NCBI GenBank assembly: GCA_035636315.1
Contig: DASPZJ010000084.1
Coordinates: forward strand, 25,401 to 89,400
Direction: 5' to 3'
Length of the DNA stretch: 64,000 bases
Source: Thermoplasmata archaeon
Lineage (GTDB): Archaea > Thermoplasmatota > Thermoplasmata > RBG-16-68-12
In this document: positions 45,472 through 60,685 of the stretch, one piece after another
Layout of the letters: each line of letters opens with the position of its first letter
Position numbering within the stretch: the first letter of the stretch is position 1
Notes under the pieces: generated by a model
Told to the model about the DNA's origin: nothing
The model's database searches: none
Seen by the model: the letters and a program-made list of their open reading frames with translations, nothing else
Translations under genes and position numbers: made by a program

Positions 45472-45544
45472 GCTCCCGTAGTCTAGCGGCCAAGGATAGA
45501 AGCCTCTCGAGCTTCTGACACGGGTTCAAATCCCGTCGGGAGCA
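45472..45544 (+). tRNA. tRNA-Glu (anticodon CTC); integration target
   Basis: Acceptor GCTCCCG/CGGGAGC, anticodon stem GAAGC/GCTTC, loop CTCTCGA, T arm ACGGG-TTCAAAT-CCCGT. The TATA-like cctttatg lies about 30 nt upstream. Confidence 0.85.
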
Positions 45545-45581
45545 TACGTGCGGACGGTACAAACCCATCCCGTCCGCCATT
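45539..45581 (+). repeat. att-like direct repeat, copy 1 (43 nt, overlaps the last 6 nt of tRNA-Glu)
   Basis: ggagcatacgtgcggacggtacaaacccatcccgtccgccatt is identical to 56788-56830. It contains the 8-bp hairpin gcggacgg/ccgtccgc. Imperfect homology continues to about 45646. Confidence 0.8.
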
Positions 45582-45726
45582 TTCCAATCTGACAGTGGGG
45601 AACGTTTCCGACTCAGTAATCGACTGTCCAAACCCATTGGGTTTGTCGTCTATGATCGTGGTCGGCTCGTGGAGGACTCAGCCTTCGTCCGGCGGCTCCT
45701 GACCCGGCTCCACCACGAGAGTCGAA

Positions 45727-46170
45727 TTAGAAGCTATTCCGCTCCAGGAAATGCACTGCCTTCTCCAAAGTTTGGAGGTATTCGGTTTTCCGCCACCATT
45801 GGCCGTGGGCGTGCAAGATGCTATTCCTTTTGCTGTTAAAATCGACTAGGAGCCCATGCTCGGCATCGTTGATGACTCCCAATATGAACGCCCACTCGAT
45901 CAGCTCATGGGTTCTAGCGAAGGAACGGTTCTTTCGCCGGCTTTCGATTCGGTTCCGCGTTTGTGTCGCTCGCTCACCCTCGAAAATTCTGTTGATTCGC
46001 TCCCATAAGATCCGTTCAACAGCTAGCTGAGTGTGAACAAAGGCCTCGACGTATTGACCTTTCCCAATCATCTCTGTAATGACTGAACTCCCCATATAGC
46101 GAACAATCGAGTCCGTCTCTTCCCCAGTCGCGGCATCGTTCACCCGGATGGGTCGAACCTTGGGATCCAT
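45727..46170 (-). CDS. HEPN-like protein (RNxxxH motif)
   Basis: 147 aa, predicted helical, with a C-terminal FNSKRNSILHAHG that fits the HEPN Rx4-6H signature. Confidence 0.4.
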   Translation of the reverse strand: MDPKVRPIRVNDAATGEETDSIVRYMGSSVITEMIGKGQYVEAFVHTQLAVERILWERINRIFEGERATQTRNRIESRRKNRSFARTHELIEWAFILGVINDAEHGLLVDFNSKRNSILHAHGQWWRKTEYLQTLEKAVHFLERNSF

Positions 46171-46362
46171 AGGCGACCTCTCAGCCCAAGAGGGGCGACC
46201 GCCCAAATGTCGTTTGCGGGGAATTTGGTGCCCGAAGTGTAGGTTCCGGCGCCAGCGGTCTGGAACGAACGTCTTGCGAGTTCCGCCGCAGGGGTTGTAT
46301 TCACATTGGTGGCAGAGGGATTCGGACGACACGACCCGAGTGGCAACTCTGATTGACGATGG

Positions 46363-46746
46363 TCAAGGAGTCGAATCCCAATCGCGAATGAGCCGCCCCC
46401 AGCGGTACAGCGGGGTCTCAACGAGCTCCATGCCCTTCAAAGTCAACGCAGCCCGCACTTCGTGGCGTCCCTGCGTTTGTCTCCTTCGCCTCATGATCCC
46501 CATACACTCCAACTCGCGCAGGGCAGCGATGACGGTCGCCGGATGGGCGTCGAGTTCTCGAATCAAACCAGACGTACTGACGTTGCCACGGTCATAGAGC
46601 GAGACTATCACCAAAAGAGAAACTTTTCGCGCCAAGAGATTTTGGATGATGGGACTCGTCCCCACTGCCGGCTTCGAACAGAAGGGTAGAAGGCTCGATG
46701 AGGCGAGATACTGGAAGTGAAATCGGGCGGCCCCGTCGGATTCCAC
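46363..46746 (-). CDS. winged-helix DNA-binding protein (MarR/ArsR-like)
   Basis: VSTSGLIRELDAHPATVIAALRELECMGIMRRR...LTLKGMELV. Confidence 0.55.
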   Translation of the reverse strand: MESDGAARFHFQYLASSSLLPFCSKPAVGTSPIIQNLLARKVSLLVIVSLYDRGNVSTSGLIRELDAHPATVIAALRELECMGIMRRRRQTQGRHEVRAALTLKGMELVETPLYRWGRLIRDWDSTP

Positions 46747-46800
46747 CCCGACGCAAAACGTGTCGCCTCCGCCTGACTCTCTTCGATTCTGGATGACGAG

Positions 46801-46808
46801 TATTTAAG
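46801..46808 (+). promoter_or_regulatory. TATA box (TATTTAAG) for the island metG
   Basis: Centred about 30 nt upstream of the ATG at 46834, consistent with a leaderless transcript. Confidence 0.45.
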
Positions 46809-46833
46809 TTCGCACTCTCTTCCTACGGGCACA

Positions 46834-48471
46834 ATGACGAAAATCGTCGTCTGCGTGGCTTGGCCCTACGCCGCGGGCCCGAGGCACCTCGGGCATGCGA
46901 TTTCGACGTTCATCCCCGCGGATATATTCGCGCGATACCACCGGATGAAAGGCGACCAGGTCCTCATGGTCGGGGGGAGCGACATGCACGGCACGCCGAC
47001 GATGGTTCTTGCTGACCAAGAGGGCGTCCCCCCTAACGTCGTCGCGGAACGCTACCACGCGCTGCATGCGAAGAACATCGAGCAGCTCGGCGTGCGGTAT
47101 GACCTCTACTGGAACACGGCGGACCCGCACCATAAGGCGTGGGTGCAAGAAATCTTCCTCGCGCTAAAGCAGAAAGGCTACGTCTACGAGGCAACGATGG
47201 TCTCCCCGTTCTGCACGACGGACAACCGGTTCCTCCCGGACCGTTACGTCGGGGGCACCTGCCCCCATTGCGGTTTCCCGCGTGCCCGCGGAGACCAGTG
47301 CGAAAACTGCGGCAATGTCTTGGATCCGTTCGAACTTATCAATCCCAGATGCGGGATCCACGGGACGACGCCAATACCGAAGGAGACGAAGCACTTCTTC
47401 TTCCGGCTCAGCGCATTCCAAGAGCGGCTCAAAAAGTGGGCCGAGGACGATAAGGAGCATTGGCGGCACCACGTGCTCACCTTCATGCGGAGCTGGCTCC
47501 GGGAAGGCCTCAAAGACCGGCCGATCACACGGGATCTGGAATGGGGCATCGAAGTGCCGGTTGTCGGCTACGAGAAGAAGCGGATCTACGTCTGGTTCGA
47601 GGCCGTGATGGGCTACCTGACCGCAATGAAGGAATTGTACCGCCGTCGCGGGAATCCGGAGGGTTGGAAAGATTTCTGGTACGATCCCAAGGCGCGGCAC
47701 TTCTACTTCATCGGCAAAGACAACATCGTGTTCCACACGATCTTCTGGCCCGCGATCCTCATGGGCTACGACGACGAGCTTGACCTGCCGTACGATGTGC
47801 CGGCGACGCAGTACCTGAACTTCTCGGGAGAGAGGATGAGCGCAGGTCGAGGACATGGGGTGTGGCTCCCAGACCTTCTGGAGCGGTTTGATCCAGACCA
47901 GCTGCGATACTACGGAGTCGCGACGATGCCAGAGACGAAAGACACCGACTTCGAATCGGAGGACTTCGCGCAACGGAACAACAACGAACTCCTCGCCGTA
48001 TACGGAAACTTCGTGCACCGCGCCTTGAAGTTCGCGGAAAAGAACTTCAGCCACAAGGTCCCGCCCGCGGCCTCGCTTGATTCGGCGGACAAGTCCATGA
48101 TTGGGGCAATCGAGGAGCAGTGGACGAAGGTCGGTGAGGATATCGAGTATGTTCATCTGAAGGAGGCGATGAAGGAAGCGATTCAGCTCGCCCGTCTCGG
48201 GAACCGGTATTTCGACCGGAAAGCGCCATGGGACCTAATCAAGAAGGACAAGGTCGCCTGCGGCACAGCGATACACATCTGCCTAAGAGTCTCCCGCTCT
48301 CTCGCGCTGGTCATGGCGCCGTTCCTGCCTTTCAGCTCCCAACGCCTCTGGCACGCCGTGGGCTACGACACAGACGTTCACCGTCAGCGGTGGGATGAAG
48401 CTCTCAATGACATACCAGCCGGGCAAACACTTCGGGTCGGCAAACCACTATTCTCGAAATTGGGTTCTTAG
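46834..48471 (+). CDS. metG: methionyl-tRNA synthetase (short form, no C-terminal appended domain), non-consensus KMSKS loop
   Basis: HIGH motif PRHLGH, zinc knuckle CPHCG...CENCG, anticodon-binding helices. The KMSKS position reads FSGERMSAGRG. Confidence 0.85.
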   Translation: MTKIVVCVAWPYAAGPRHLGHAISTFIPADIFARYHRMKGDQVLMVGGSDMHGTPTMVLADQEGVPPNVVAERYHALHAKNIEQLGVRYDLYWNTADPHHKAWVQEIFLALKQKGYVYEATMVSPFCTTDNRFLPDRYVGGTCPHCGFPRARGDQCENCGNVLDPFELINPRCGIHGTTPIPKETKHFFFRLSAFQERLKKWAEDDKEHWRHHVLTFMRSWLREGLKDRPITRDLEWGIEVPVVGYEKKRIYVWFEAVMGYLTAMKELYRRRGNPEGWKDFWYDPKARHFYFIGKDNIVFHTIFWPAILMGYDDELDLPYDVPATQYLNFSGERMSAGRGHGVWLPDLLERFDPDQLRYYGVATMPETKDTDFESEDFAQRNNNELLAVYGNFVHRALKFAEKNFSHKVPPAASLDSADKSMIGAIEEQWTKVGEDIEYVHLKEAMKEAIQLARLGNRYFDRKAPWDLIKKDKVACGTAIHICLRVSRSLALVMAPFLPFSSQRLWHAVGYDTDVHRQRWDEALNDIPAGQTLRVGKPLFSKLGS

Positions 48472-48545
48472 GTCGCGCTGTTTCAACATACTGATTTGAA
48501 AGGCTGTCTCGGCCCCCAGTAGTGGTCTTTTCCCGGCTCGGCAAC

Positions 48546-50117
48546 TCACACATTCCCGTTTTGAATCAAAGGAAGAGCATTTTCTGGGAGAATTGGACCA
48601 AATTTGAGGTAGGCTTCGTGGGCAGCGGCGCCATGTGGATTTATTCCTCGGGTACGGCCAACCTGTCTAAGAACCTCCTCCGTCTGCAGGATACCGATGC
48701 AATACGGAAGGAGCCTCGACAATTGGCCGGAATTCCTTTCGAGGAAGATCGACAACCGTTCGCGTTCCTCCAGTGGCAGTGGGATCAGTATGCGGTCGAT
48801 CGTCGATTTCAATCGACTGAGCCCGCCCAAAGCTCCAGCAAGCTGCCAAAGGCCTGCGGTCAGTCTCCGGACTCGATGGGAGATAGCAACACTCCCGGCC
48901 GCCTCATTCTTCTCCGACATCGAGAGAACCGCTGACTCGGCGTAGAAGCCCCACCCTTCAAAGCCGACAGGCGACTTGGTGAAGGAGTAAAGGGGAGAGA
49001 ACGGGGACTCAGCAGCGCGCCTAAGCTGTTCGTCGTGCCCGGGACAGACCTCATGGGCGACAGTAACTGTCATTCTGGCTCGGTGCTCGGTTTGTCGTTC
49101 TTTGGGCCACATGGTCCGCGGGAGCACAACCAGCCCTGGCGCATCGAAGCTGAAACCCATCGATGTGGGGGGTAGATAGAGGCACTCCGGTATGAACGAC
49201 TCTGCGAATAAAGGTGCACTCAGGAATAGTGCCCGCGGCCCGGTCTTGGCCAGAAACCGCTCCCTCACACTCTCCTTCAGAGTCGCTTCCGCGACCTTAA
49301 TCATGTCTAACCTCGGGTCGACAACGGAATCGATTGGGCTGCCACCATCGAGTCCTCCCGAGTACGATGTTGGCACGCCCCATTTCAGCAGTCTCCCTAC
49401 TTCGACGCGCAATCGCAATGCCAGCGATTTGAAAAGGCGGTCTGGGGTCATGCCCAACCCTAGAACTTCTTTGAGATACCAAACAAGACTGACGGATGTT
49501 GCATTGCGCCCCAGATTCCTTAATGGGAACTCGCGCCACCTCTCGAGACGTCCGATCACCTCCGAGCAAAGAGGTTCGGGAAGCCCACGCCATTGGGAAA
49601 GGCCTGCCAGCAGGCGTTCTGAAGTTGTCCTATCACGATCCGTAACCTCGAGCATCCCGGCCTTGACTCGTTTTTCTCCCCAGTCAAGCCACCGGATGCA
49701 AACTCGTAGACGGCTTTCAAGTGCAACTGACATGTCGTCGGGTAAGACGGAAAATCGAGATCTCAAGTAAAAGGGTAAAAGGGAGAACGCGCACAAATTC
49801 AAGTACACATCTGCCCTCGAATCGTAGAGCCTCTGTATCTTGTGTTTCAGAATTTGCTCACTTGCGAACCGTCGGACCTCTGCCAGTACGGTTCTGCCTG
49901 GGACTGAGAGCGAACCCCTGGCTGCCCTCGTAGTGGCATCGCGAAGCTTGACAACCTCAGCCCTCCACGCTTCAAGCCCTCTGGATGTGAGGTCTTCGGC
50001 CGAGTCCCATACCGGCGCGCCTTGAAGCGTGGAAGCCGTTGGCTGATATCTTTTCCAGAGAGAATCCGCTGCTAAGACGATGCTCAGTACGATCTTGTCT
50101 ATTCGAGCGAGAGGCAT
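48546..50117 (-). CDS. DUF885-family protein (metallopeptidase-like HExxPGH motif)
   Basis: 523 aa. VAHEVCPGHDEQL matches the DUF885 HE..PGH signature. Confidence 0.6.
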   Translation of the reverse strand: MPLARIDKIVLSIVLAADSLWKRYQPTASTLQGAPVWDSAEDLTSRGLEAWRAEVVKLRDATTRAARGSLSVPGRTVLAEVRRFASEQILKHKIQRLYDSRADVYLNLCAFSLLPFYLRSRFSVLPDDMSVALESRLRVCIRWLDWGEKRVKAGMLEVTDRDRTTSERLLAGLSQWRGLPEPLCSEVIGRLERWREFPLRNLGRNATSVSLVWYLKEVLGLGMTPDRLFKSLALRLRVEVGRLLKWGVPTSYSGGLDGGSPIDSVVDPRLDMIKVAEATLKESVRERFLAKTGPRALFLSAPLFAESFIPECLYLPPTSMGFSFDAPGLVVLPRTMWPKERQTEHRARMTVTVAHEVCPGHDEQLRRAAESPFSPLYSFTKSPVGFEGWGFYAESAVLSMSEKNEAAGSVAISHRVRRLTAGLWQLAGALGGLSRLKSTIDRILIPLPLEERERLSIFLERNSGQLSRLLPYCIGILQTEEVLRQVGRTRGINPHGAAAHEAYLKFGPILPENALPLIQNGNV

Positions 50118-50254
50118 CTGCTCACTCAGGTTATCGCGAAGCAGACCGGCTACCTAACGGCAGCCGCGACGAGTGACGAGGCGATCTATTCGGCGTCAAC
50201 GTTTCCGTCCTAGCGGGCTTTCTTGCAGGTAAGCAGGGCACCTTGGTATCCTCT

Positions 50255-51619
50255 TTATCGTGACACGGGGATTGAAACCGGTCTCGCCGTTCCTCGTTCT
50301 ACGAGAACCTGATTGATTGTCGCTCGCGTCGCAAAGTAGGCAAAGTACCCGACGAATATCCCCGCGACCCCTACCCCCAGGTAGACACCCATAATGTAAG
50401 CGACCGGAATCTGCACCAGCCATACAGTTGCAATGTTGCTATACATGTTCCACCAAGTGTGACCCAGAGCTTGTAACGCCCCTGAGTGGGTTGTGGTCCA
50501 AGCTACGAATGGTGCAGTGACTCCAACAACGACGATGGCCAATGCGGCTTCACTTAGAACCGACTGAGATCGTGTGAACAGACCCGCGATGCTCCCAGAC
50601 CAGATGGACACGCCCAAACCAAGCACCGTCAAGACGATTAACGTCATCAACCTGCCCGAGACTAGTCGGTTTCGGACTTCCTTGCCGTCGTTCCTTCCAA
50701 GACTGTGTCCCATCATGATTTGAAGGCCGAGACCAAAGTTGCTTGCGAGAACGAAAAGGGTCATTAGGACTACGTTGGCCACCCGGGCCGCAGCGAGCGC
50801 ACTAATCCCTAGAAGACCGATAAGCGCAGTAAAAACAAGTCCTCCAGTATAATCAAGCGCTTGATTTACAATTTCAGGGGAGCTCAGCCGCAGGATTGTT
50901 CGAGCCTCATCACGTCTTGGCCGTTTCAACTCGATTCTGAACAACCGCCGACGTCGAAAACACCAAGCAAGGAAGGCAAGGCCACCCAGCGTTGACAATG
51001 CGCTTGCGAGACCAGCCCCGGCGAGTTGCATGCCAGGGAAAGGCCCAAGTCCAAATATTAGCACGTAGGATAGCGAAATGTTGAGCACACCACTTGTCAA
51101 CACCGCATACATTCCCCACTTCGTTTCACCGTAGGTGTTGAAGGTGGTTTGCAGGAGCAAAAAGCCTGCAAAGAAAACAAGTTCTGGGCTCCGGAATTGG
51201 AGGTAGTGGAGAGCCCCGTCCACGACAGTCGGGTCCCTCGAAATAAGGACAAGCAGTGGCCGTGCGAACCACAAGCAAAGCGCTTCACCGAGCGTGATAA
51301 GAACAAGTATTGGGAACATCGTCTCGAGGGCGGCTTTTACACCCGCGCGATCGCCGGGCCCAAAGCGTCGTGCTGACACTATTCGATACCCGACGGCAGT
51401 TGCTGCAGCTGTTTGCGAGAATATCGAGAACACTGCTAAGGCCACTGCGACCGAAGCAAGGTTCACAGCTCCTAACACGCCAATGAATGCGGTGCCTATC
51501 AGATTCACAAATAGCTGCCACGTGGAACTCACTATCATTGGCGAGGTGAGCTTTCCGAGCCTCTTCCATTCTTGATTATGTGAGAACGACTTTGGCACTT
51601 TTTCGCCTCTTCGTCGCAA
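50255..51619 (-). CDS. MATE-family efflux transporter
   Basis: 454 aa with 12 predicted TM segments. The N-terminal LTSPMIVSSTWQLFVNLIGTAFIG is typical of MATE. Confidence 0.8.
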   Translation of the reverse strand: MRRRGEKVPKSFSHNQEWKRLGKLTSPMIVSSTWQLFVNLIGTAFIGVLGAVNLASVAVALAVFSIFSQTAAATAVGYRIVSARRFGPGDRAGVKAALETMFPILVLITLGEALCLWFARPLLVLISRDPTVVDGALHYLQFRSPELVFFAGFLLLQTTFNTYGETKWGMYAVLTSGVLNISLSYVLIFGLGPFPGMQLAGAGLASALSTLGGLAFLAWCFRRRRLFRIELKRPRRDEARTILRLSSPEIVNQALDYTGGLVFTALIGLLGISALAAARVANVVLMTLFVLASNFGLGLQIMMGHSLGRNDGKEVRNRLVSGRLMTLIVLTVLGLGVSIWSGSIAGLFTRSQSVLSEAALAIVVVGVTAPFVAWTTTHSGALQALGHTWWNMYSNIATVWLVQIPVAYIMGVYLGVGVAGIFVGYFAYFATRATINQVLVERGTARPVSIPVSR

Positions 51620-52712
51620 TTCCTGCTACCGGCGGTCCGCAATGCCGACAGTGCACATTTCGAGCTAACTTCAACAACGAGTGTTTGGTGTAATGCTGGA
51701 GGTCTAACGAGATTATGCCGTCCATTGTCGCGGGCCTGCTTATTCCTGAAAGATAGCGAGCGGCTTCCCAAACAGCCACGCTAGTCGTGATTCCTATCCG
51801 AGGAGCGAATGCTGCCTGAAAGCTACCCGGCCGAGCGGGCGACCGGAGGATGGTGTCATTGATTCGTTTGTCGGAGACCGCGCACCAGTAGCAAGCAGTC
51901 TTCCCAGGAACGGTGAGCGGTCCGACCCATGATGCAGTCATGATGAGCGAGGGGACTTTCGCTTCTAACGCGGCAAGGGCAACAGACTCAAATGGGGTAT
52001 CGTGACTCTGATCCAAGGGAAGTAGTCCAAAAGTGTTGAATACTAAGCTCACACCATCGAGGAAGGGTTCCAGGTCGTCAGGTGACCGCACTGCAACCTG
52101 GTGCCCATCAACCTGTAGCGAAGGGTCAACTCTCGACAAATTCCGTACGGCGGCCTTGACCTTTGGTTTCCCGATATCCTCGTTTGTGTACAGTATTTGG
52201 CGACTGAGGTTACTCAGCTCGACTCGGTCGGGATCTAATAGGACGATACCCTTGATTCCAATCCGCGCACACAGTAGTGCGATCCAAGATCCAACACCTC
52301 CGACCCCGACCACTAAAATCTTTCTATTCTGCAATCGCCTGTTGAGCGCTTGTCCAGTAGTCCCTTGAGATTCGAATGTGCTGAGAAAGCGGATTTGCCG
52401 ATCGTACAAGGAATCGCCTTCAGCCCTGTCCTGGCTTTTACGACGCGTGACTAGAGCATCGGAGCTTCTCAGGAAGTCAAGAGCTTCCCTCACGATCCCA
52501 GCAGAGAGCCCCGAGTAGCGCGCCAGCAGCGCTTCTGCACGCGACGCCTGCACTCCTCTGGTGAGGGCGAAAAAGAGCGTCTCTAGCCGCTCCGGGCGGG
52601 GAGACTTCATCACGAATGGCCGCTGTTCGACGACAGACCAGACCACAACTCCAGCAGACGACGGTGAGAATCTCCAACTTCGTTGGAGAGTGAGAACTTC
52701 GGTCCGGCTCAA
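51576..52712 (-). CDS. ThiF/MoeB/E1-like adenylyltransferase with about 115-aa N-terminal winged-helix-like extension
   Basis: YDRQIRF...ILVVGVGGVGSWIALLCARIG...LDPDRVELSNLSRQ, CxxC pairs CYWC and CRHC, and the N-terminal LSAGIVREALDFLRSSDALV. Confidence 0.8.
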   Translation of the reverse strand: MSRTEVLTLQRSWRFSPSSAGVVVWSVVEQRPFVMKSPRPERLETLFFALTRGVQASRAEALLARYSGLSAGIVREALDFLRSSDALVTRRKSQDRAEGDSLYDRQIRFLSTFESQGTTGQALNRRLQNRKILVVGVGGVGSWIALLCARIGIKGIVLLDPDRVELSNLSRQILYTNEDIGKPKVKAAVRNLSRVDPSLQVDGHQVAVRSPDDLEPFLDGVSLVFNTFGLLPLDQSHDTPFESVALAALEAKVPSLIMTASWVGPLTVPGKTACYWCAVSDKRINDTILRSPARPGSFQAAFAPRIGITTSVAVWEAARYLSGISRPATMDGIISLDLQHYTKHSLLKLARNVHCRHCGPPVAGIATKRRKSAKVVLT

Positions 52713-53767
52713 CGGTTACCCCCGAGGGCGAGCCGTCGCGGGTCCATTCCCATCGTAATCGTGTACATGGGGGCTTGCCAAACAGCATCCAATGACAAAA
52801 GGCTCGCTACTTCTCGATCCTTAATCGCCGGTGTTACGAGCGTCGCCAAACCGTAGGCGGCGCCGGTCAGGATGAATCTTTGTCCGAGGTAGCCGGCCTC
52901 AATGTACAGGTTCCGGAGTTCGCGGTCGTGGCGATAGCGCCAGCTTGCTTGATTGAAGTCCGCACAAAGGATTACGGTAAAGTTCGCGGTTCTCGCCGCA
53001 GGAATGCCAAACATCGCCTTGCTTAAGGTATCTCGCACGGGACCGGAGCGAATCTGAGTCATCTCGTGCTGTCGAGGATCATAGTAGTGGATTCCCGTGG
53101 CCACTCCATCTACCGAGTAGACTGCGACATAGAAGTCGAAAGCGGTGCCGAAGCTAGAGAGATAGTCAACGGGGTCCAGGTATGCCATGTTCCGAATGCG
53201 CCGAACTGGGGTCAGAGTCCACCAGAGAACGGAGGAAAGGAGCCCCTCTTCGATCGGTCGGTGCGAGTAGCCGCGAATGGTTCTGCGACTCATGAGTAAC
53301 GACCCCAACGTCGCGTCGTGCGTGGGGAGTCCGGGTGCGCTGAGACCTACAGTTGTCCCACCTGGAACGCGACGTTGTGGGGGGCCGTCTTCTCGGAGGA
53401 ATCGAGCCACCGCTTCCCGGCGAAGATTGGCGTCAGGATCTTGCTCGTCAAAGTACTTACATCGCCGCGACCAGAGATAATATTCCAAGGAACCGTGCCA
53501 TCCACGCTCCAACCAATGCCGCGCCCTAGCAATCTCCACGGGATCGACTCTACTATTATCCGCCCTCCACATAGCAGAAAGCCTCGACTCAAATTCCATA
53601 GCCAAAGGTGACGGCGTACGTTCTACAATCTTAGAGGTGACGTACTCTAACATCGCGACACGGCTTATTCGCGCCGTCCGCCCATTCCAGGCATCTGAAA
53701 GCATCACGATATCGTCATGTTCATCAATTGGCGGCCGCAGGACTGTTAGCGGTGGGTAGATGCTCAT
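52709..53767 (-). CDS. SagB/ThcOx-type nitroreductase-fold dehydrogenase (2)
   Basis: LMSRRTIRGYSHRPIEEGLLSSVLWW...LYIEAGYLGQRF. 4-nt overlaps with both neighbours. Confidence 0.7.
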   Translation of the reverse strand: MSIYPPLTVLRPPIDEHDDIVMLSDAWNGRTARISRVAMLEYVTSKIVERTPSPLAMEFESRLSAMWRADNSRVDPVEIARARHWLERGWHGSLEYYLWSRRCKYFDEQDPDANLRREAVARFLREDGPPQRRVPGGTTVGLSAPGLPTHDATLGSLLMSRRTIRGYSHRPIEEGLLSSVLWWTLTPVRRIRNMAYLDPVDYLSSFGTAFDFYVAVYSVDGVATGIHYYDPRQHEMTQIRSGPVRDTLSKAMFGIPAARTANFTVILCADFNQASWRYRHDRELRNLYIEAGYLGQRFILTGAAYGLATLVTPAIKDREVASLLSLDAVWQAPMYTITMGMDPRRLALGGNR

Positions 53768-54984
53768 TGTTGCGACTCCGCATTCAAATCGGGTAAACTA
53801 CTCACGTCTGCTTCGCCAAGCGCCATGGAAACAAGGTAGCCCTCTTCCAATCTCGAGATTCCCAGCTCGCGTTCGACCTCATCTTCGTTGGCCGGGTAGT
53901 CCATGAAGTAGCGGAGGCCAAAGGCTTCCGCAGCAAGGCAAACGCTGGCAGCTAAGTGACCTGCATCCATGTGCACTGTGCGAAACGTCCGGGGTTCCCG
54001 GTAACGATACATGTTTCTTTCAAACCGCGAAGTGAGTATGATAATTGCGCCGACCTTGAACCCAGCTCGGACATATGTTGCCGGGAACAACCGTCTCAAC
54101 TCCGCATCCTCTATACGCGTACCCCTGAGAAGTTCGAGCGTCACCGGGTTGATCGCCAAATGGTACCACCCCGGTTGTAGTCCGTGAATATCTATGCTGG
54201 CAATGTACACCTCCGTGGGGTGACGGGAGCCTCCGGATGGGCTTGTCCGGTGGAGTAGGGGTTCTCCGGCCCAACGCGTTCTCATGGAGCCGGTCTGGCC
54301 AAAAGCTATCGACACGATGGATGCAAGACACTCGCTGTCCAGGCGTCGCGATTTGGGGTGGCCCAGGAACAACGCAGACGCAGGTACGGGAACGAGACCA
54401 GGGGATGGTTCGGGCAAGGACATTCGGGACATGGCCGACGGATATTCCTTACGACGATCTCGGTCGGGTTCTGCCGATGCATATTCCGCCATACGCTTGG
54501 AAGCAAATCTGCTTCCTTCCCTGTCCGCTTCAACGAATTGGTATCCATACGTTAGGATGTGGTATTCGGCCGCCTCTGCCCAGCCTCTAGAGGCCCAGCT
54601 GAGGCGAAGTCTACTGCACCATTGAAGCGCCGTGTCCTTTGCGACGTCGCTGGCACGGCGAAGTAAACCTGCACGCAGGAGCGATGTCACCGCTCGCTCG
54701 ACGCGTTTCTTGGGCAGGTTCAAGCTGTAAGATGTCGACCGCACGACAGAGGCTCTCCTCTGTTTGCGCATGCATGCCACAAGTAACGTGACAAGGTCAG
54801 ATGTGAGCGCGTATCTCTTTCGGCTCAACAGGTCCTCCGCAACCCACAGCTCCTGGGTTAGGACAGATGGAGGGAGCAGGCGGACTGCTGGACTCGTGCA
54901 AATTAACTGCGATTGGGACCAATGTGCAGCTGTCGTCGGCTCCCTCCGGACAAAGGATGCGCACGGACCTTTGAGAATCGTCAA
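53764..54984 (-). CDS. SagB/ThcOx-type nitroreductase-fold dehydrogenase (1) with N-terminal wHTH-like region
   Basis: AAEYHILTYGYQF...HRTSPSGGSRHPTEVYI...VHMDAGHLAASV. TTG start; the frame opens at 55014. Confidence 0.7.
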   Translation of the reverse strand: MTILKGPCASFVRREPTTAAHWSQSQLICTSPAVRLLPPSVLTQELWVAEDLLSRKRYALTSDLVTLLVACMRKQRRASVVRSTSYSLNLPKKRVERAVTSLLRAGLLRRASDVAKDTALQWCSRLRLSWASRGWAEAAEYHILTYGYQFVEADREGSRFASKRMAEYASAEPDRDRRKEYPSAMSRMSLPEPSPGLVPVPASALFLGHPKSRRLDSECLASIVSIAFGQTGSMRTRWAGEPLLHRTSPSGGSRHPTEVYIASIDIHGLQPGWYHLAINPVTLELLRGTRIEDAELRRLFPATYVRAGFKVGAIIILTSRFERNMYRYREPRTFRTVHMDAGHLAASVCLAAEAFGLRYFMDYPANEDEVERELGISRLEEGYLVSMALGEADVSSLPDLNAESQQ

Positions 54985-55085
54985 AGGCCGCGCGCTATCA
55001 TTCAGGGCACAGGTTCACAGGTTACGAAGAGATGGCGGATCGACAGTCGTGGGCTGGCCATTTACCTAGCGGCGGCCTCTCACGA

Positions 55086-55214
55086 TTACGTTGGGTCCCC
55101 GCAACCGCCTTCCTGCATGAGGGCAAGGCTAAAGGGCGGCAGCTCTTCGATTACCAGCACACTCTTCTCGTTCTTCGCTCGCTTTTCTGTTTCCTTTGTA
55201 CGCTTTCGGGCCAT
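55086..55214 (-). CDS. unannotated 42-aa ORF, candidate substrate/precursor peptide
   Basis: My own translation: MARKRTKETEKRAKNEKSVLVIEELPPFSLALMQEGGCGDPT. AGGTGA lies 5 nt upstream of the ATG, the TATA-like gtttatcg lies about 36 nt upstream, and the ORF ends about 100 nt before the first SagB-type gene. It is below the size cut-off of the ORF track. Confidence 0.35.
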   Translation of the reverse strand: MARKRTKETEKRAKNEKSVLVIEELPPFSLALMQEGGCGDPT

Positions 55215-55259
55215 TCGTGTCACCTGGGTCTGAAACGGTAAGCGGACGATAAACAACCG

Positions 55260-55287
55260 CGAATCTGAAATACAGATTTACGATTCG
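55260..55287. promoter_or_regulatory. compound palindrome CGAATCTGaaataCAGATTtacGATTCG upstream of the small ORF
   Basis: Inverted repeats AATCTG/CAGATT (55262-55267 and 55273-55278) and CGAATC/GATTCG (55260-55265 and 55282-55287), just upstream of the TATA-like box on the minus strand. Confidence 0.4.
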
Positions 55288-55397
55288 TATTTTGGCTACC
55301 CTGCTTGACGGATTACCGTGGGAGGGAAAGCTGAGTTCACGAAGGATTGATTCAACGTCGCCCGAGTAGATTCGCAGAACCTAGTCCGAGAGCGGAG

Positions 55398-55727
55398 TCA
55401 GCTATAGCTAGACCCCTCCAACTCAAGAAGAGAAAATAAGCTCAAAGCGCGAGCTAACTTGGGTCGACGCAGGTCCGTAGTTCCCCTCTTGCTCGGACCG
55501 ATGAACAGCATGTAAACCACGGCCATGAGTTCCGGGGAATCTGATCGTTTTCCAAGGGCGATTTCTTGACTTTTCATTCGTGGCATGACACAAACGGCGC
55601 ACCCCTCTAGCGGGCAAACGCAAGTACCAGGGGCCCGCACCGATTCGCCAATATGTACAGGGTCTGGCAACTCAAGCCTAGCGTCAATCGTCTTCACTGA
55701 TTCGCGGCCTGGGTCTCTATCGTTCAT
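55398..55727 (-). CDS. 109-aa ORF with CxCx4Cx2C cluster (hypothetical)
   Basis: GTCVCPLEGCAVCVMP. No recognised family, and coding status is uncertain. Confidence 0.25.
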   Translation of the reverse strand: MNDRDPGRESVKTIDARLELPDPVHIGESVRAPGTCVCPLEGCAVCVMPRMKSQEIALGKRSDSPELMAVVYMLFIGPSKRGTTDLRRPKLARALSLFSLLELEGSSYS

Positions 55728-55776
55728 TCGCCGATGATCCTTTTGTCAGGAGTCCACGCGGCAACGAGGCACCCCT

Positions 55777-56091
55777 CTAGAACCCGTAACCTTGCAGGAG
55801 TTGCTTGACATCCGCATTGTATTCGTCTAGGAACTTATGACCTCGTTCCGTCAAGCGTGGCCCGGTCTGAACCACGAGCCCTCTCATCTCAAGTTGCTCA
55901 AGGTATCGTTTGAACGCTTTCCAATTGACGTAGGACCGCGCTTGAATCCTGGTTTTCCTGGGTTTCTCAGGATTGTTCTCTTCCTCCTCCAGGACCGCCG
56001 ACATAATGGCGACGGCGACTTCAATCTCGGACCGTCGCTTGTGCGTCGATTCTCCCCCGGGGTGGAACTGCAGCGAGACATATTTAGTCAT
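55777..56091 (-). CDS. small archaeal winged-helix protein (putative regulator)
   Basis: IQARSYVNWKAFKRYLEQLEMRGLVVQTGPRLTERGHKFL. Confidence 0.6.
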   Translation of the reverse strand: MTKYVSLQFHPGGESTHKRRSEIEVAVAIMSAVLEEEENNPEKPRKTRIQARSYVNWKAFKRYLEQLEMRGLVVQTGPRLTERGHKFLDEYNADVKQLLQGYGF

Positions 56092-56787
56092 GTGCGGAAT
56101 GTTCCCAAATTTAGGATCGCCGTCGTGGCGGTGAGTACTTCACCGGTGGATAGCGGCGGGCGAAGCGAGTTAGTTGGCGCTTGACTGAAAGGTCCCGTAA
56201 TACCTCCCGTTCTCGCTTAGCTTCGACATCGCGACAGGCATAGTCTCAGTCAAGACCCAGAAGGAAGAAATCAAGTCTTCGCAGGGATGCAACTGTCACC
56301 GGAGCGGGACGACCTTCTGCTCTCGGCGTACCTCGCTTTGCCCGCCGTTTGTCGGACCTTGACGTCCCCACATGGAGAAACAGCGAATCCCTCCGGTCCG
56401 GCAAGTTCCTACGACGATCGAAGGGGAAAGGAGAGACTGGAATTCTTGGGCCCAGTCTTGTGCTGGGACAGAGAACGGTCTGGGCGGGCAAGTCCTTTTC
56501 TGTATTCGGACACATTCGTTTGTCCCGTGGCGTGGCCCAAGGAACTTCCCGCAATCCCCGCGCGCTGGGAGCATCCGCGGAAGCCCCTCAAAGCAGAGCG
56601 CCCCTTCCGGCTGCACACGGCCCGCAAGGACCTGTATGCCTTCTACTTCCGCAAGCTTGGGTTCGGATTCGGGCAGGTGATCGAAGTCAATACGTACACG
56701 CACGGACCGAGCCGACTCCAGGTCGTCGGCATAAAGTGGCTGTCCGGGAACGTTAAAGGCCCCACGGCGGATGGCTCCGTCCGGTCC

Positions 56788-56830
56788 GGAGCATACGTGC
56801 GGACGGTACAAACCCATCCCGTCCGCCATT
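56788..56830 (+). repeat. att-like direct repeat, copy 2
   Basis: 43/43 identical to 45539-45581. Imperfect homology, including the palindrome CAAACCCAnTGGGTTTG, continues to about 56896. Confidence 0.8.
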
Positions 56831-56908
56831 CCTTGATTCGATAATGAGGAACGTTTCCGGGTCAGGAACCGACAGTTCAAACCCACTGGGTTTGTTATTC
56901 TCAATACC

Positions 56909-56918
56909 GGTTTTATCG
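56909..56918 (+). promoter_or_regulatory. TATA-like box (GGTTTTATCG) for the integrase
   Basis: Centred about 27 nt upstream of the ATG at 56940. It is part of a 13-nt motif, tcaataccggttt, repeated at 62200. Confidence 0.4.
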
Positions 56919-56939
56919 ACAGTACCATACGAGGATCGA

Positions 56940-58445
56940 ATGCAAACCCCAACACGGGCGGAACGCGAGGTCAGGCGCCAAGCCCTCATGGACGACGAGG
57001 ACGTTCGGCTGTGGAAACAGAACGTCGGCTCGGCGGCCACGGGTGACAACTACTGGCGCATGCTGGCGTACTTCTGCGAGCAGAAGGGCTACACGCCGAA
57101 GAGCCTCCTCGAACTGACGGACAAGACGATCACCGATCTCGTGCAGGCATACATGCACGAGCACGGCAACCACGGGGCCGTGCAGGCCAAGAAGGCCGTG
57201 GCGTCGTGGCTCCTCCACAACGACAGGAAGTTCACCCGCGACATAAAGACCCCCGAGGAGGTCCGGCTCGCCCGCCCCCGCGTCGATGACATGTTCATCC
57301 CGACGCAGGGCCAGTTGCGGCAGGTCTTCGACGCAGCCGACGTGCGGGCGAAGGCGGCCATCAGCGTGATCGCGTTCGCGGGCCAGCGTCTACAGGTCCT
57401 CGGGACGTACAAGGGGACGGACGGCCTCGTGCTCGCGGACCTCAAGGACCTCGTGATTGATGGGGGCAACGTCGGGTTCAAGAACTCCCTCGCGGCCCAG
57501 ATCGTGATCCGGCGCCCGCTCTCGAAGAAGCGCCACGAGTACTTCACGTTCGTAGGGCCCGAGGGGCAGGGCTACATCCTCGCCTACCTGCGGGAGCGGA
57601 TCGAGAATGGCGAGACCCTGACGCCGCGCAGCCCGCTGATTGTCCCCCTCCAGCCGAACCACAAGAAGCTCCTCACCGCGCGGTCACGCGAGGACAAGTT
57701 GCGCGAACTCGGGAGGAAGGCGAACGTGGCGGCGAAGATCGACAACGACCGCCCGTTCATCCGCGCGAGCAACGTGAGCGGGATACTCCGCAAGCCAATG
57801 ATTGCCGCGGGGCTCCACGTCCCGAAGGCCAAGGTGAACGGGGAGAAGTCCGACCCTTCCTACATCTGGCGGTCGTTCTTCGCCCACCAAGGCGAGATGG
57901 CGCAGGGACTTTCCGAGTCGTACCGGCATTTTTTCGAGGGTCGCAAGGGAACGGTGGCCGCCGACTACTCGCTGCACAAGGGCGTGTCCGCCGAGAAGCT
58001 TGAGGTGATGCGCAAGGCATACGCGAGCGTCCTCCCGTTCGTGGAGACCGAGCGGAGGCCGGTCGCGACCGAGACCCTCGCGCTGACGAAGATCGCGGAA
58101 CTAGAGAAGCAACTCAAGGACCTCAAGGCGGCGCAGGCGAACCCGGAGCAGATCACGATGCGTGAGTTCCGGGAGCAGGCCCCGATACGGGACGAGTTGG
58201 TGAAGGCCCGCACGGACGCGATGTCCCCCGGCGAACTGGATGCGCGGGCCGAGGCGGACCGGCTGGGGCAGGTCCTCACCGACGCCATGGACGGCGAGGG
58301 CAACTTCACCGAGAAGGGCGTCGAGCAGAGCGGCGAGGAGCCGCCGATGACCCGTGCGGAGATCATCGAGATGGTGAGACTCGGGATTATGACGACGGGC
58401 GAGGCGCGCGACCGGATGGGGCTGAACGGGAAGGAGGCCGCGTGA
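56940..58445 (+). CDS. int: tyrosine recombinase / integrase with long C-terminal coiled-coil extension
   Basis: Candidate catalytic residues in the expected order: AFAGQRLQVL (Arg I), YIWRSFFAH (box II-like R...H), FEGRKGTVAADY (terminal Tyr). Confidence 0.7.
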   Translation: MQTPTRAEREVRRQALMDDEDVRLWKQNVGSAATGDNYWRMLAYFCEQKGYTPKSLLELTDKTITDLVQAYMHEHGNHGAVQAKKAVASWLLHNDRKFTRDIKTPEEVRLARPRVDDMFIPTQGQLRQVFDAADVRAKAAISVIAFAGQRLQVLGTYKGTDGLVLADLKDLVIDGGNVGFKNSLAAQIVIRRPLSKKRHEYFTFVGPEGQGYILAYLRERIENGETLTPRSPLIVPLQPNHKKLLTARSREDKLRELGRKANVAAKIDNDRPFIRASNVSGILRKPMIAAGLHVPKAKVNGEKSDPSYIWRSFFAHQGEMAQGLSESYRHFFEGRKGTVAADYSLHKGVSAEKLEVMRKAYASVLPFVETERRPVATETLALTKIAELEKQLKDLKAAQANPEQITMREFREQAPIRDELVKARTDAMSPGELDARAEADRLGQVLTDAMDGEGNFTEKGVEQSGEEPPMTRAEIIEMVRLGIMTTGEARDRMGLNGKEAA

Positions 58446-58601
58446 TTGGAACTCGTCTTCCCTCGTCAGTGGTTCAACGATCCGGATGACTTGGTCGTTG
58501 GCCACTACCTCAAGTTCGTCTCGGGACTCGGCGTGGTGAGAGCGAGGAAGATCATCGCCATCGACCGGGAGCGCAGCACCGTCACTGCGGAGGGCGAGTG
58601 A
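58446..58601 (+). CDS. 51-aa ORF (hypothetical)
   Basis: The TTG start directly follows the integrase stop, and its stop overlaps the next ATG by 1 nt. My own translation: ELVFPRQWFNDPDDLVVGHYLKF... Confidence 0.3.
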   Translation: MELVFPRQWFNDPDDLVVGHYLKFVSGLGVVRARKIIAIDRERSTVTAEGE

Positions 58602-58750
58602 TGGAGAAGAGGTGCCCCCGCTGCGGCGCGGTCTGGGAGCCGGACCTCGCGCCCGATGTCGAGACGGTGATCCTCGAAGAGGCCACGGGCGCGGTGTTCC
58701 TCGTCGTGGGGTCCGAGCACGAGTGCGACAAGATCACGGAGTGGTCCTGA
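58601..58750 (+). CDS. 49-aa Cys-containing ORF (hypothetical)
   Basis: MEKRCPRCGAVWEPDL...SEHECDKITEWS. 1-nt overlaps (TGATG) on both sides. Confidence 0.4.
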   Translation: MEKRCPRCGAVWEPDLAPDVETVILEEATGAVFLVVGSEHECDKITEWS

Positions 58751-58935
58751 TGCTCGGGTGGAGATTCACGTTCGCGATCCCCGGCGGGCAGGTCCTCTGG
58801 CCTCCCGTGTGGGGCGTAGAGGACCGTGACGAGGCCCTGAAGTACGCGGAGGCTCGCGCCCGAGCCGCCGGGTTCGAGATCACGGGGCTCGTTCAGGACA
58901 GGCGCGGCGAGAACTGTGGCACGCGGAGGTTCTGA
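58750..58935 (+). CDS. 61-aa ORF (hypothetical)
   Basis: MLGWRFTFAIPGGQVLWPPVWGVEDRDEALKYAEARARAAGFEI... Confidence 0.4.
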   Translation: MLGWRFTFAIPGGQVLWPPVWGVEDRDEALKYAEARARAAGFEITGLVQDRRGENCGTRRF

Positions 58936-59241
58936 ATGTCGCGCGGCCTATCGGCGAATCAGCGTCTCGTGATCGAGCAGCATGGGATGATCAACGAAGA
59001 CAACCTAATCACGGTAGCCGAGATGGCGGAGGTGAATGGGAAGACCCGGTACTTTCCACGGGGCGCGGAGTTCGGGTTTGCGAGTCACGGGACTTACGAC
59101 TACGACCGTAGATCGATATTCAGAATGATGGCTTCCTTGAAGAGGCGCGGGCTGGTCAGGTGGTGCAAGCCATACTGGAGGAAGCGAAGGGGTTTGTATC
59201 TCCGCCCCCCGATCATCACGATCCGGAGGGGACGGCGATGA
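58936..59241 (+). CDS. small winged-helix protein
   Basis: RRSIFRMMASLKRRGLVRW. Starts at the nucleotide after the previous stop. Confidence 0.5.
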   Translation: MSRGLSANQRLVIEQHGMINEDNLITVAEMAEVNGKTRYFPRGAEFGFASHGTYDYDRRSIFRMMASLKRRGLVRWCKPYWRKRRGLYLRPPIITIRRGRR

Positions 59242-59990
59242 AGGCGACGAAGAGCGAGCCTGACGGCGACTTCTGGGTCACACCGCTGGAGTATTCATCC
59301 GACCAAGTGAAGGAGTACGTGCGCAACCGGCTAACGAACGGGCACGGCTTCGCGATGGTGCTGTCACGTGAAGCGATACGTTCCTCGGAGACGGAGATGA
59401 AGATGTATCAGGAGTACTCCGCGGCAAGAGATCGCGGGGCCACAAGCGCCGAGATCGATACCATCGTCGGTAGCTACCCTCCGGACGCGGAGGAGTGGTC
59501 CGTCGAGTATTGGCTGGACTCTCCCTTACCCGAGGGGCACGAGCCGGGCAAACTCTCATTGGAAGGTAAGATTTCCAACCTCTGGAGGAACTTCTCCACC
59601 GACAAGAAGTCCCTCGTTGAGTGGACCGATACCGGTATGGTGGCCACCTTCTACGCCGAAGAGGGTGCACTCAAGTTCGCGCGGGACGTGTCCCAACTTC
59701 TCAAGGCGGCGCTGAACCGGAACGTGAAGGAGAAGGCGGTCTATCCCGTGGATTCTGGCACGATGACCGGGACCTTCACCGGGTGGCTCCGCGAGAAGGT
59801 CAAGAAGCCGTCGGACTTGTGGGACCCTGCTCCCAAGGCCGATGGAATCTGGGTCTACGGATCGACGGTGACCAAGTACAACGAGGAGACAGGATCGTCG
59901 CTCTCGTTCAGTGGGCTCTGTGCGGCTCTCGACCGGAAGCCACAGGTAAAGGACGGTAGGAAGCGGGTGCTGGTCACGCGGGTTGCATGA
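59238..59990 (+). CDS. hypothetical protein (250 aa)
   Basis: ATGA overlaps at both ends. No recognised domain. Confidence 0.5.
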   Translation: MKATKSEPDGDFWVTPLEYSSDQVKEYVRNRLTNGHGFAMVLSREAIRSSETEMKMYQEYSAARDRGATSAEIDTIVGSYPPDAEEWSVEYWLDSPLPEGHEPGKLSLEGKISNLWRNFSTDKKSLVEWTDTGMVATFYAEEGALKFARDVSQLLKAALNRNVKEKAVYPVDSGTMTGTFTGWLREKVKKPSDLWDPAPKADGIWVYGSTVTKYNEETGSSLSFSGLCAALDRKPQVKDGRKRVLVTRVA

Positions 59991-60577: not shown

Positions 60578-60685
60578 ACAGTACGTTGGAGGGTTTTCCG
60601 GAGAGTTCCCCTATTGCTATAGTATAGACAATTCTATTCTGGCAAGATTGGAATAAACCTTCCGGACACCTGTTTACTGTTTACC
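60566..60685. repeat. 16-nt perfect inverted repeat (GGTAAACAGTAAACAG / CTGTTTACTGTTTACC) flanking an 88-nt AT-rich spacer
   Basis: Arms at 60566-60581 and 60670-60685. Each arm is itself a tandem AAACAGT duplication. The spacer contains ctatagtataga and two TTCCGGA palindromes. Confidence 0.7.

Follow-up and report, generated by a model that had tools for sequence, protein, structure and literature searches.

A probable tiarin-family gene cluster with a matching methionyl-tRNA synthetase on a tRNA-Glu-bordered island of a Thermoplasmata archaeon

What does a compact peptide-maturation operon do in an archaeal genome when it encodes two SagB-type nitroreductase-fold proteins, an E1-like (ThiF-like) enzyme and an exporter, and sits on a low-GC island that has no YcaO cyclodehydratase? 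We addressed this question for a 64,000-nt stretch of a Thermoplasmata archaeon genome (assembly GCA_035636315.1, contig DASPZJ010000084.1, positions 25,401 to 89,400 of the forward strand), which we call the window and within which all positions below are counted. An earlier note had described the operon as one for a ribosomally synthesised and post-translationally modified peptide (RiPP), had framed it as an azoline pathway minus its cyclodehydratase, and had known of no described RiPP class that has this combination of genes. The RiPP-type assignment is supported by our results; the azoline framing and the novelty of the combination are not. A family of trifolitoxin-like RiPPs, the tiarins, was described in December 2025 (bioRxiv 10.64898/2025.12.02.691738, hereafter the tiarin preprint), and its operon table contains nine ThiF-containing operons without YcaO, including one of Pelagibius litoralis; the hallmark of this family is a fluorophore derived from Gln, not an azole. 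We put the probability that the island is a complete tiarin-family cluster of the ThiF/MATE/DUF885 subtype at roughly 0.8, a figure that covers family membership and the general mechanism. The island is not an undescribed RiPP class and does not open a long-standing question. What is new is its Thermoplasmata host, a truncated methionyl-tRNA synthetase (MetRS), predicted to give immunity, derived from the host's lineage and a tRNA-Glu hot spot, together with a ThiF step that has no known chemistry in any tiarin.

The genes on which this reading is built are the following (NR1 and NR2 denote the two nitroreductase-fold proteins, and RRE denotes a RiPP recognition element):

46834..48471, plus strand: truncated MetRS, 545 aa, without the C-terminal tRNA_bind domain (NF001100 592.8 bits; PF09334 491.9 bits)
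48546..50117, minus strand: DUF885-family protein (PF05960 36.3 bits against a cutoff of 32.4)
50255..51619, minus strand: MATE efflux transporter, equivalent to TfxD (PF01554 146 bits; TIGR00797 201.7 bits)
51576..52712, minus strand: MccB/PaaA-type ThiF-like adenylyltransferase with an N-terminal RRE ('peptide clamp'), 378 aa (PF00899 125.5 bits)
52709..53767, minus strand: NR2, SagB-type dehydrogenase dependent on flavin mononucleotide (FMN), TfxC homologue, 352 aa
53764..54984, minus strand: NR1, SagB-type FMN dehydrogenase, homologue in the TfxB position, with a winged-helix/RRE-like N-terminal domain; maximal open reading frame (ORF) of 406 aa
55086..55214, minus strand: precursor peptide, 42 aa, MARKRTKETEKRAKNEKSVLVIEELPPFSLALMQEGGCGDPT (by translation; AGGTGA Shine-Dalgarno sequence 5 nt before the ATG)

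The six minus-strand ORFs described in the earlier note were confirmed with their coordinates, and these agree with 4-nt overlaps between NR1 and NR2 and between NR2 and the ThiF-like gene, with a 137-nt gap before DUF885, and with a 44-nt overlap of the ThiF-like and MATE genes, which presumes a maximal ORF with a TTG start. Profile searches for PF00881/TIGR03605, PF00899, PF01554 and PF05960 returned the domains that had been proposed. Public gene calls start NR1 (326 aa) and the ThiF-like gene (356 aa) further in, which cuts off their RRE-like N-termini, and omit the precursor (L088:7903-11071; L091:1085-3058). The longer N-termini of both proteins are favoured by homologue alignments and AlphaFold models; the true start of NR1 probably lies between 54984 and ~54907, residues 1-25 of the 406-aa ORF then being untranslated. 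In GCA_009772735.1, NR1 and NR2 are called as one 657-aa ORF, which could be a frameshift variant or an assembly difference.

What defines the tiarins is two neighbouring SagB-type FMN enzymes, TfxB and TfxC, along with a precursor in which one Gln is conserved; YcaO or ThiF-like enzymes are optional accessories (bioRxiv 10.64898/2025.12.02.691738). For trifolitoxin (TFX), experiments in the same preprint established inhibition of arginyl-tRNA synthetase (ArgRS) and resistance conferred by a cluster-encoded ArgRS; the peptide enters the cell through YejABEF, and PepN shortens it to a warhead of six residues, the first of which is Arg. Genes for aminoacyl-tRNA synthetases (aaRSs) are enriched beside tiarin operons, and in every case their specificity is that of the residue before the conserved Gln; the preprint allows that these aaRS genes could serve biosynthesis or resistance. 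Its table of clusters with self-resistance aaRSs is drawn from bacterial genomes only.

NR1 and NR2 are adjacent and form a TfxB/TfxC-type pair, an assignment made through Thermus homologues and not through TfxB and TfxC of Rhizobium themselves. Their SagB type, as proposed earlier, is borne out by the TIGR03605 scores (cutoff 78.4 bits), which are 79.6 bits for NR2 and 70.6 bits, below the cutoff, for NR1; PF00881 gives 52 and 40.8 bits, and TIGR04511 gives partial matches to both (96.9 bits for NR1). The window genes for NR1, NR2, ThiF, MATE and DUF885 are collinear with the Thermus plasmid pTHTHE1601 (NC_017273.1), the encoded proteins sharing 42, 40, 37, 39 and 31% identity, respectively (E 1e-62 to 5e-92). 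The Thermus counterpart of NR2 (WP_014510989.1; 40% identity over 339 aa, E 1.8e-78) is listed as a TfxC homologue in the tiarin preprint, and among the 372 homologues found with NR1 are the Thermus protein and a protein of Rhizocola hellebori, for which that preprint reports a tiarin cluster. The best match of both proteins in the PDB is 3EO7 (Anabaena ava_2154), a protein with two nitroreductase domains in tandem; NR1 matches the first of these domains and NR2 the second, which suggests that NR1 and NR2 act as a heterodimer equivalent to the fused protein. Both carry the N-terminal extensions described in the earlier note. In the AlphaFold model of NR1 (pLDDT 83), the nitroreductase domain is preceded by a module at residues 27-110 (pLDDT >90) of four strands, three helices and a further strand. 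Over its full length the model finds its best structural match in the cyanobactin oxidase ThcOx, which itself has RRE-like domains. This N-terminal module thus fits an RRE in the model, which is compatibility and not proof, and a Pfam scan of the three N-terminal extensions (NR1, NR2 and ThiF) for PqqD/RRE models at E<=10 gave nothing useful.

The precursor ORF ends 101 nt upstream of NR1 and has the strong Shine-Dalgarno sequence given above. Its leader contains the aliphatic and acidic motif VIEELPPFSLAL, and its core region reads ...VIEELPPFSLALMQEGGCGDPT, with Met33 directly before Gln34, the conserved Gln of the family. In a six-frame scan of the island it was the only match to the family motif, and its VIEELPPFSLAL-M-Q motif can be aligned with nine further precursors of the ThiF type, drawn from the preprint and the loci that we read. 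Small ORFs upstream of these cassettes follow a common pattern, namely IEELPxFxLA, one variable residue, Gln, and a short tail with Asp or Glu and usually Cys. The precursor was not called in the public gene calls of L088-L091, and no NCBIfam model covers it, including the TfxA model NF033430. The Met-Gln motif of this peptide is absent from the earlier note, as is the MetRS gene beyond DUF885.

Met33-Gln34 and the MetRS on the same island agree with the specificity rule of the tiarins, under which the predicted target is MetRS. A locus that is absent from the preprint, L108, has a precursor MAETKELAVEELAPFELALVQGPDCEN (ending ...ELALVQGPDCEN) directly upstream of a valyl-tRNA synthetase (ValRS) gene (NF009687 887 bits); its V-Q pair matches, and at the sequence level the rule is independently confirmed there.

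The stop codon of the MetRS gene lies 75 nt from the end of the DUF885 gene. Its best homologues are 710-aa MetRS proteins of metagenome-assembled genomes (MAGs) of Thermoplasmata and 'Methanobacteriota' (84-85% identity over 100% of its length). In these relatives the 710-aa MetRS genes (81-85% identical to the island copy) have another neighbourhood, of housekeeping type and itself conserved, which includes TRAM, PHP and riboflavin-synthase genes. The island protein aligns to residues 2-548 of Pyrococcus abyssi MetRS (1RQG), and the C-terminal domain is cleanly absent; the standard crystallised Escherichia coli MetRS is also a truncated form (547-551 aa), and this truncated enzyme is active. 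In an alignment with 120 homologues, 17 columns conserved to at least 97% carry a substitution private to the island MetRS. Its G+C content at third codon positions (GC3) is 0.78, as compared to 0.82-0.88 for MetRS genes of the lineage, 0.74-0.93 for host genes and 0.55-0.63 for the biosynthetic genes. Judged by identity and composition, the island MetRS is derived from the Thermoplasmata lineage, and the biosynthetic genes are foreign and most similar to bacterial homologues, so that the island is a mosaic. Under the tiarin rule, we predict that the island MetRS is a resistant copy of the target that provides self-immunity.

Three candidate observations on MetRS were rejected. A 710-aa ORF at 30326-32458, of the same length as the MetRS of the lineage and considered as a housekeeping MetRS, encodes an amidohydrolase. 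The RMSAG sequence of the island MetRS, considered as a degenerate KMSKS loop (a decoy enzyme), recurs as K/RMSAG in the 710-aa housekeeping homologues. The private substitutions T265M and W268L, considered to fall inside the Met-pocket motif VWFEAxxGY, lie 4 and 7 residues after it in the 1RQG alignment.

The gene set recurs in other genomes, a co-occurrence that the earlier note had proposed to look for: NR-NR-ThiF with a matching precursor and without YcaO is present in nine contexts. In every readable context two nitroreductase-fold genes precede the ThiF-like gene, the order being constant, and a small ORF lies upstream. The contexts differ in what accompanies the cassette:

L001/L002: NR-NR-ThiF with an MFS pump and an M16 peptidase
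L107: NR-NR-ThiF with MATE and DUF885
L108: NR-NR-ThiF with MATE; ValRS
P0014 contig: NR-NR-ThiF with MATE and an S9 peptidase
L003-L005 and L109: the cassette among LuxCDE, adenylation, AurF and nonribosomal peptide synthetase (NRPS) genes

YcaO was found in none of the nine homologous clusters (0/9). Because these contexts keep the NR-NR-ThiF order and all lack YcaO, we see neither housekeeping nitroreductases unlinked to ThiF, nor an always adjacent YcaO, nor a dead cluster, any of which the earlier note would have taken against its reading. That note had also seen no YcaO-like ORF in the island or the window; this holds for the island, where the assigned genes leave no spare ORF of YcaO size, and is provisional for the remaining window, which was not exhaustively scanned.

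In Alphaproteobacteria/Allosphingosinicella MAGs (L003-L005, with L003:920-12576 and L005:971-12583) and a metagenomic contig (L109:2435-10250), tiarin-type precursors end in ...PALLQEC or ...PALLQDC, and the neighbours of the cassette encode LuxC/LuxD/LuxE, acyl-AMP ligases, an A-T didomain, an AurF-like oxygenase, PhyH and NRPS. The clusters of L003-L005 and L109 may make lipidated or hybrid tiarins, and clusters of this type are not seen in the RefSeq-based table of the preprint.

Two host proteins mark the genome as archaeal, Hel308 with its archaeal domain 4 and a TGT of the ArcS type, and the 90% cluster to which this Hel308 belongs includes a protein labelled 'Thermoplasmata archaeon'. 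The island (45545-56779) has a GC content of 56.2% as compared to 67.1% for the DNA upstream, which confirms the low-GC island of the earlier note, and it is bracketed by repeats:

45472..45544, plus strand: tRNA-Glu (CTC), left border of the island and insertion site (ARAGORN; Rfam RF00005 63.5 bits)
45531..45646: left copy of a 116-nt direct repeat, att-like, starting within the last ~14 nt of tRNA-Glu (repeat search)
56780..56895: right copy of the repeat, 116 nt, overlapping the start of ORF533 (repeat search)

The two copies are 84% identical in a pairwise alignment, and their first ~45 nt are identical. With the 3' half of the tRNA-Glu gene as the pattern, a metagenome scan recovered more than 120 related soil contigs; about 40 of them are syntenic upstream (72-94% nucleotide identity), and their homology to the window ends at 45544-45547, with different DNA downstream. 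None of 120 related tRNA-Glu contigs (L110-L229), at least 12 of which reach at least 4.5 kb past the tRNA, encodes any of six island proteins, and a scan with the 31-nt att core gave no match. In L124, a copy of the repeat and the start of ORF533 lie ~7.5 kb from the tRNA, and the insert between them carries different cargo. In the archaeal lineage of the host, the tRNA-Glu(CTC) gene is a hot spot of insertion, and the earlier proposal of an inserted element in an archaeon is borne out by the tRNA-Glu border, the direct repeats and Hel308/ArcS. Identical ThiF-like and DUF885 protein sequences were found in five public assemblies or read sets, and the island is present in several soil metagenome assemblies. 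Since all island ORFs are full length relative to their orthologues and identical proteins recur across these data sets, the cluster looks alive rather than decayed.

These data also bear on an alternative in which the cluster is of tiarin type and MetRS is not actively inhibited here, either because the cluster is an unexpressed recent passenger or because the MetRS has another role (tRNA-dependent biosynthesis or replacement of the housekeeping enzyme). The GC3 gap between biosynthetic and host genes, the absence of the cluster from the 120 related tRNA-Glu contigs and the lack of a second MetRS within the window are all compatible with it, and the preprint leaves a biosynthetic role for cluster aaRSs as an option. 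Against it, the ORFs are intact, their overlaps suggest translational coupling, the Shine-Dalgarno sequence of the precursor is strong, and the ThiF-like and DUF885 proteins are identical in five independent assemblies or read sets. Moreover, a MetRS that was recruited from the archaeal lineage, truncated and diverged is hard to explain without selection for immunity, and for ArgRS the resistance role is experimental (bioRxiv 10.64898/2025.12.02.691738). We consider this alternative unlikely and retain a tiarin-family cluster directed against MetRS.

In 27 homologues of the ThiF-like enzyme, the Arg-finger DRQ motif, GxGxxG, D160/D162, NLxRQ, K184, C274/C277 and C355/C358 are invariant. Because the ATP-binding and catalytic motifs and two CxxC pairs are all retained, the protein looks like an active, Zn-containing adenylating enzyme and not like a scaffold of the type found in thiazole/oxazole-modified microcin (TOMM) pathways. 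By phmmer its closest relative in the PDB is MccB (2.9e-19), ahead of ThiF, MoeB and PaaA. The AlphaFold model built from 24 sequences has a mean pLDDT of 90.4, with residues 5-91 folding into four strands, three helices and a last strand. Foldseek places ~365 of the 378 residues on full-length MccB (E 4e-25, TM-score 0.72-0.83), followed by PaaA; with this full-length MccB-like fold, the winged-helix, peptide-binding reading of the N-terminus and the MccB/PaaA architecture given in the earlier note prove correct. About 29 close homologues (36-51% identity) all come from metagenomes or MAGs, and those with taxon names are bacterial. A scan of a genome collection with the back-translated ThiF alignment added one true relative among 80 loci (Waddliaceae, L008), the patterns being generic for ThiF/MoeB.

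Enzymes of this kind are known to catalyse several reactions: MccB makes an N-P bond at the C-terminus, PaaA an imide out of Glu side chains, GrcB a thiolactone between a Glu side chain and a Cys, IndF an indolylamide, and OxzB, a fusion of ThiF and nitroreductase domains, an oxazolone (ThiF-like RiPP enzyme reviews). The combination of a SagB-type pair with ThiF is mentioned neither in the ThiF-RiPP reviews nor in the paper on ThiF in lactic acid bacteria.

A microcin-C-like pathway, in which the MccB-like enzyme makes a peptidyl-nucleotide (an aminoacyl-adenylate mimic) against MetRS and the SagB-type proteins only tailor the product, has several points in its favour: as in microcin C, the adenylyltransferase is of MccB type and has a peptide clamp at its N-terminus, no solved protein is closer to it than MccB in sequence or fold, and microcin C is also a Trojan-horse aaRS inhibitor with which a MetRS immunity gene would be equally compatible. 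The precursor does not suit such a pathway, since MccB requires a C-terminal Asn on a short peptide, whereas the 42-aa window precursor has Thr as its last residue, homologous precursors end in various residues (T, Y, Q, W, L, C, N), and the residue that tracks the aaRS is internal, before the conserved Gln. The NR-NR pair is universally conserved, whereas ThiF occurs in only 9 of ~79 operons tabulated in the preprint, and scans with Pfam and NCBIfam profiles found no MccC-, MccE- or MccF-type genes (nor MccD) on the island. We regard a microcin-C-like product as distinctly unlikely and keep the tiarin assignment. A decayed or split azoline cluster (of the TOMM or linear azole-containing peptide type), with its YcaO lost or encoded elsewhere and the E1-like protein as an inactive C-protein scaffold, could claim that TOMM pathways typically include SagB-type dehydrogenases and E1-like partners, that the ThiF-like protein has a weak partial match to TIGR03882 (28 bits, below the cutoff of 36.9) and that the core peptide has a Cys, but it is very improbable given that YcaO is absent from nine homologous clusters of unrelated organisms and from all nine ThiF-containing operons of the preprint, where the two enzymes never occur together, that the E1-like protein retains all the ATP-binding and catalytic motifs, unlike TOMM C-proteins, and that all genes are intact and the core, with a single Cys, is not rich in Cys/Ser/Thr.

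The precursors give a hint of the substrate of the ThiF-like enzyme within a tiarin pathway. Of 15 ThiF-type precursors, 14 have an Asp or Glu among the four residues after the conserved Gln, as compared to 11 of 45 non-ThiF precursors (Fisher p = 3e-6, based on hand-annotated counts and ignoring phylogeny), and 11 of the 15 ThiF-type precursors have a Cys at most 6 residues after the Gln. We infer that the enzyme adenylates a carboxylate near the Gln and that an intramolecular nucleophile then closes a ring, the candidates in the window being Glu35, Asp40 and the C-terminus. Because the acidic residue is enriched after the Gln and ThiF and YcaO never share an operon, it is conceivable, at somewhat less than even odds, that ThiF-type tiarins are a chemically distinct subclass in which an extra ring (thiolactone or imide/lactam), closed once the Asp/Glu right behind the Gln-derived heterocycle or the C-terminus has been adenylated, replaces the thiazoline made by YcaO, and that the window cluster would be the first known aaRS antibiotic of an archaeon against archaea, composed of an imported bacterial-type cassette and a recruited, truncated MetRS of the lineage.

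The two remaining genes of the operon fit an export and processing function. TfxD of the trifolitoxin cluster is a MATE pump (bioRxiv 10.64898/2025.12.02.691738). The DUF885 protein has a metal-binding-like motif, AHE[VI]xPGHxE, that is invariant in three orthologues, and it has no sequence match in the PDB. Orthologues occupy the same slot in Thermus, L107, Pelagibius and Lactococcus, and because M16 or S9 peptidases fill the slot after the exporter in sister clusters, the DUF885 protein is predicted to be the leader peptidase.

Together, a pathway modelled on the characterised trifolitoxin system can be proposed. The 42-aa precursor would dock through its leader VIEELPPFSLAL onto RRE-like domains at the N-termini of NR1, NR2 and/or the ThiF-like enzyme. 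NR1 and NR2, probably as a heterodimer, would convert the region of Gln34 into a heterocyclic fluorophore in an FMN-dependent manner, and the MccB-like enzyme would use ATP to adenylate Glu35, Asp40 or the C-terminus, followed by attack of the Cys38 thiol or of a nitrogen. The metallopeptidase-like DUF885 protein would then cut off the leader, and the MATE pump would export the product. In a sensitive cell the peptide would be imported and trimmed by an aminopeptidase to a warhead starting with Met33, which would block methionyl-tRNA synthetase, and the producer would survive through its diverged, C-terminally truncated MetRS, predicted to be insensitive.

Several points weigh against this proposal. 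The cluster is known from its genes, and no product has been observed; expression of a cluster with bacterial-like relatives in an archaeon is presumed. Experimental validation exists for the Arg-specific TFX only, and in a preprint; the Met specificity is a prediction. The link from NR1 and NR2 to the tfx genes runs only through the Thermus and Rhizocola homologues, and a tblastn search of a plasmid collection with TfxA gave no match. An RRE in NR1 or NR2 is suggested by one AlphaFold model (of NR1) and a topology match, with Pfam blank, and the peptidase role of the DUF885 protein by its position and one motif. Finally, the island MetRS could in principle be the sole MetRS of the genome, as the window contains no other.

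The rest of the island holds few genes with recognisable functions:

45727..46332, minus strand: ORF of up to 201 aa inside the island, GC 54%, without Pfam, NCBIfam or PHROG matches
46363..46746, minus strand: MarR-family regulator, divergent from MetRS (PF01047 29.3 bits against a cutoff of 24.6)
55777..56091, minus strand: small winged-helix protein, HTH_45 or Sso10a-like (PF14947 41.9 bits; NF053610 34.3 bits)

The MarR gene is a candidate regulator of the immunity MetRS gene, and the small winged-helix protein is another candidate regulator. Three island ORFs called in public assemblies belong to no family, namely 55398-55727 (minus strand, 109 aa), 45727-46332 (minus strand, 201 aa) and 56287-56844 (plus strand, 185 aa). 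ORF533 (56844-58445, plus strand, 533 aa) overlaps the right-hand repeat; a 42% identical homologue lies 1.2 kb from tRNA-Glu in L225. A second integrated element may have ORF533 as its recombinase. Pfam, NCBIfam and PHROG profiles had no match to ORF533, to the 201-aa, 109-aa and 185-aa ORFs or to the ORFs downstream; the ~5.5 kb behind ORF533 (58446-64000; 60-66% GC) contain small ORFs that are essentially without matches to these databases. About 4.5 kb upstream of the island, in DNA of host composition, 36716-40906 (plus strand) encodes a 1396-aa protein that consists nearly entirely of TPR repeats. A 'tRNA-???' with a two-base anticodon, reported by ARAGORN at 11535-11617 (plus strand), has no Rfam support and is probably a false positive.

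If this assignment is right, the island would give archaea their first tiarin cluster that comes with a matching aaRS and would extend the ThiF/MATE/DUF885 subtype to Thermoplasmata. It would be a mosaic in which an imported toxin cassette (nearest relatives at 36-51% identity, the named ones bacterial) has gained a locally sourced antidote, and, as the MetRS comes from the Thermoplasmata lineage, related archaea are the likely targets. It would also provide one more set of precursor and enzymes with which the ThiF-like step of tiarins can be studied.

Among known systems, the tiarin cluster of Pelagibius litoralis, also predicted to target MetRS, has the same gene order. Its operon reads precursor;NR;NR;ThiF;NorM;DUF885, and the genome has a cluster MetRS in addition to the housekeeping MetRS; its precursor reads ...LGIEELPAFDLALMQTCGDGDSDPGW, with the segment IEELPAFDLALMQTCGD (bioRxiv 10.64898/2025.12.02.691738). 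The likeness consists of the operon order, the cluster MetRS and the precursor pattern IEELPxFxLALMQ...CGD. The Pelagibius host is an alphaproteobacterium, whereas that of the window is a Thermoplasmata archaeon; after the Gln, the window precursor reads QEGGCGD (Glu next, and Cys three residues further) and that of Pelagibius QTCGD; and the MetRS of the window is archaeal-type and truncated at its C-terminus. Lactococcus sp. SK2-659 has the same operon as Pelagibius with an ABC transporter in addition (same preprint).

The cluster on the plasmid of Thermus thermophilus SG0.5JP17-16 resembles that of the window in having ThiF and lacking YcaO, and its associated aaRS is a ValRS (THTHE16_RS10075, Supplementary Table 1 of bioRxiv 10.64898/2025.12.02.691738). 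Its precursor reads ...ELEPFDLALVQGCGDIAQ. It differs in being bacterial and plasmid-borne and in its specificity for Val instead of Met (it is predicted to target ValRS), and its DUF885-like gene is unrecognised by CDD and NCBIfam.

Trifolitoxin itself (tfxABCDEFG of Rhizobium anhuiense T24) shares with the window the SagB pair, a 42-aa precursor with an x-Gln core, a MATE exporter and, as the mechanism of the family, Trojan-horse inhibition of an aaRS. In the tfx cluster a YcaO protein, TfxE, produces a thiazoline, and TfxF is a third dehydrogenase; the cluster lacks ThiF, DUF885 and an aaRS gene; its immunity is provided by the GNAT protein TfxH, its target is ArgRS, and its TfxA model (NF033430) does not match the window precursor. 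With MccB (microcin C), PaaA (pantocin A), GrcB and OxzB, finally, the ThiF-like enzyme of the window shares the RRE clamp and adenylation domain, the Zn site and ATP-dependent activation of a carboxylate, at only ~20% sequence identity, whereas no known ThiF-type RiPP pathway of that group pairs its enzyme with two SagB-type proteins as the window cluster does.

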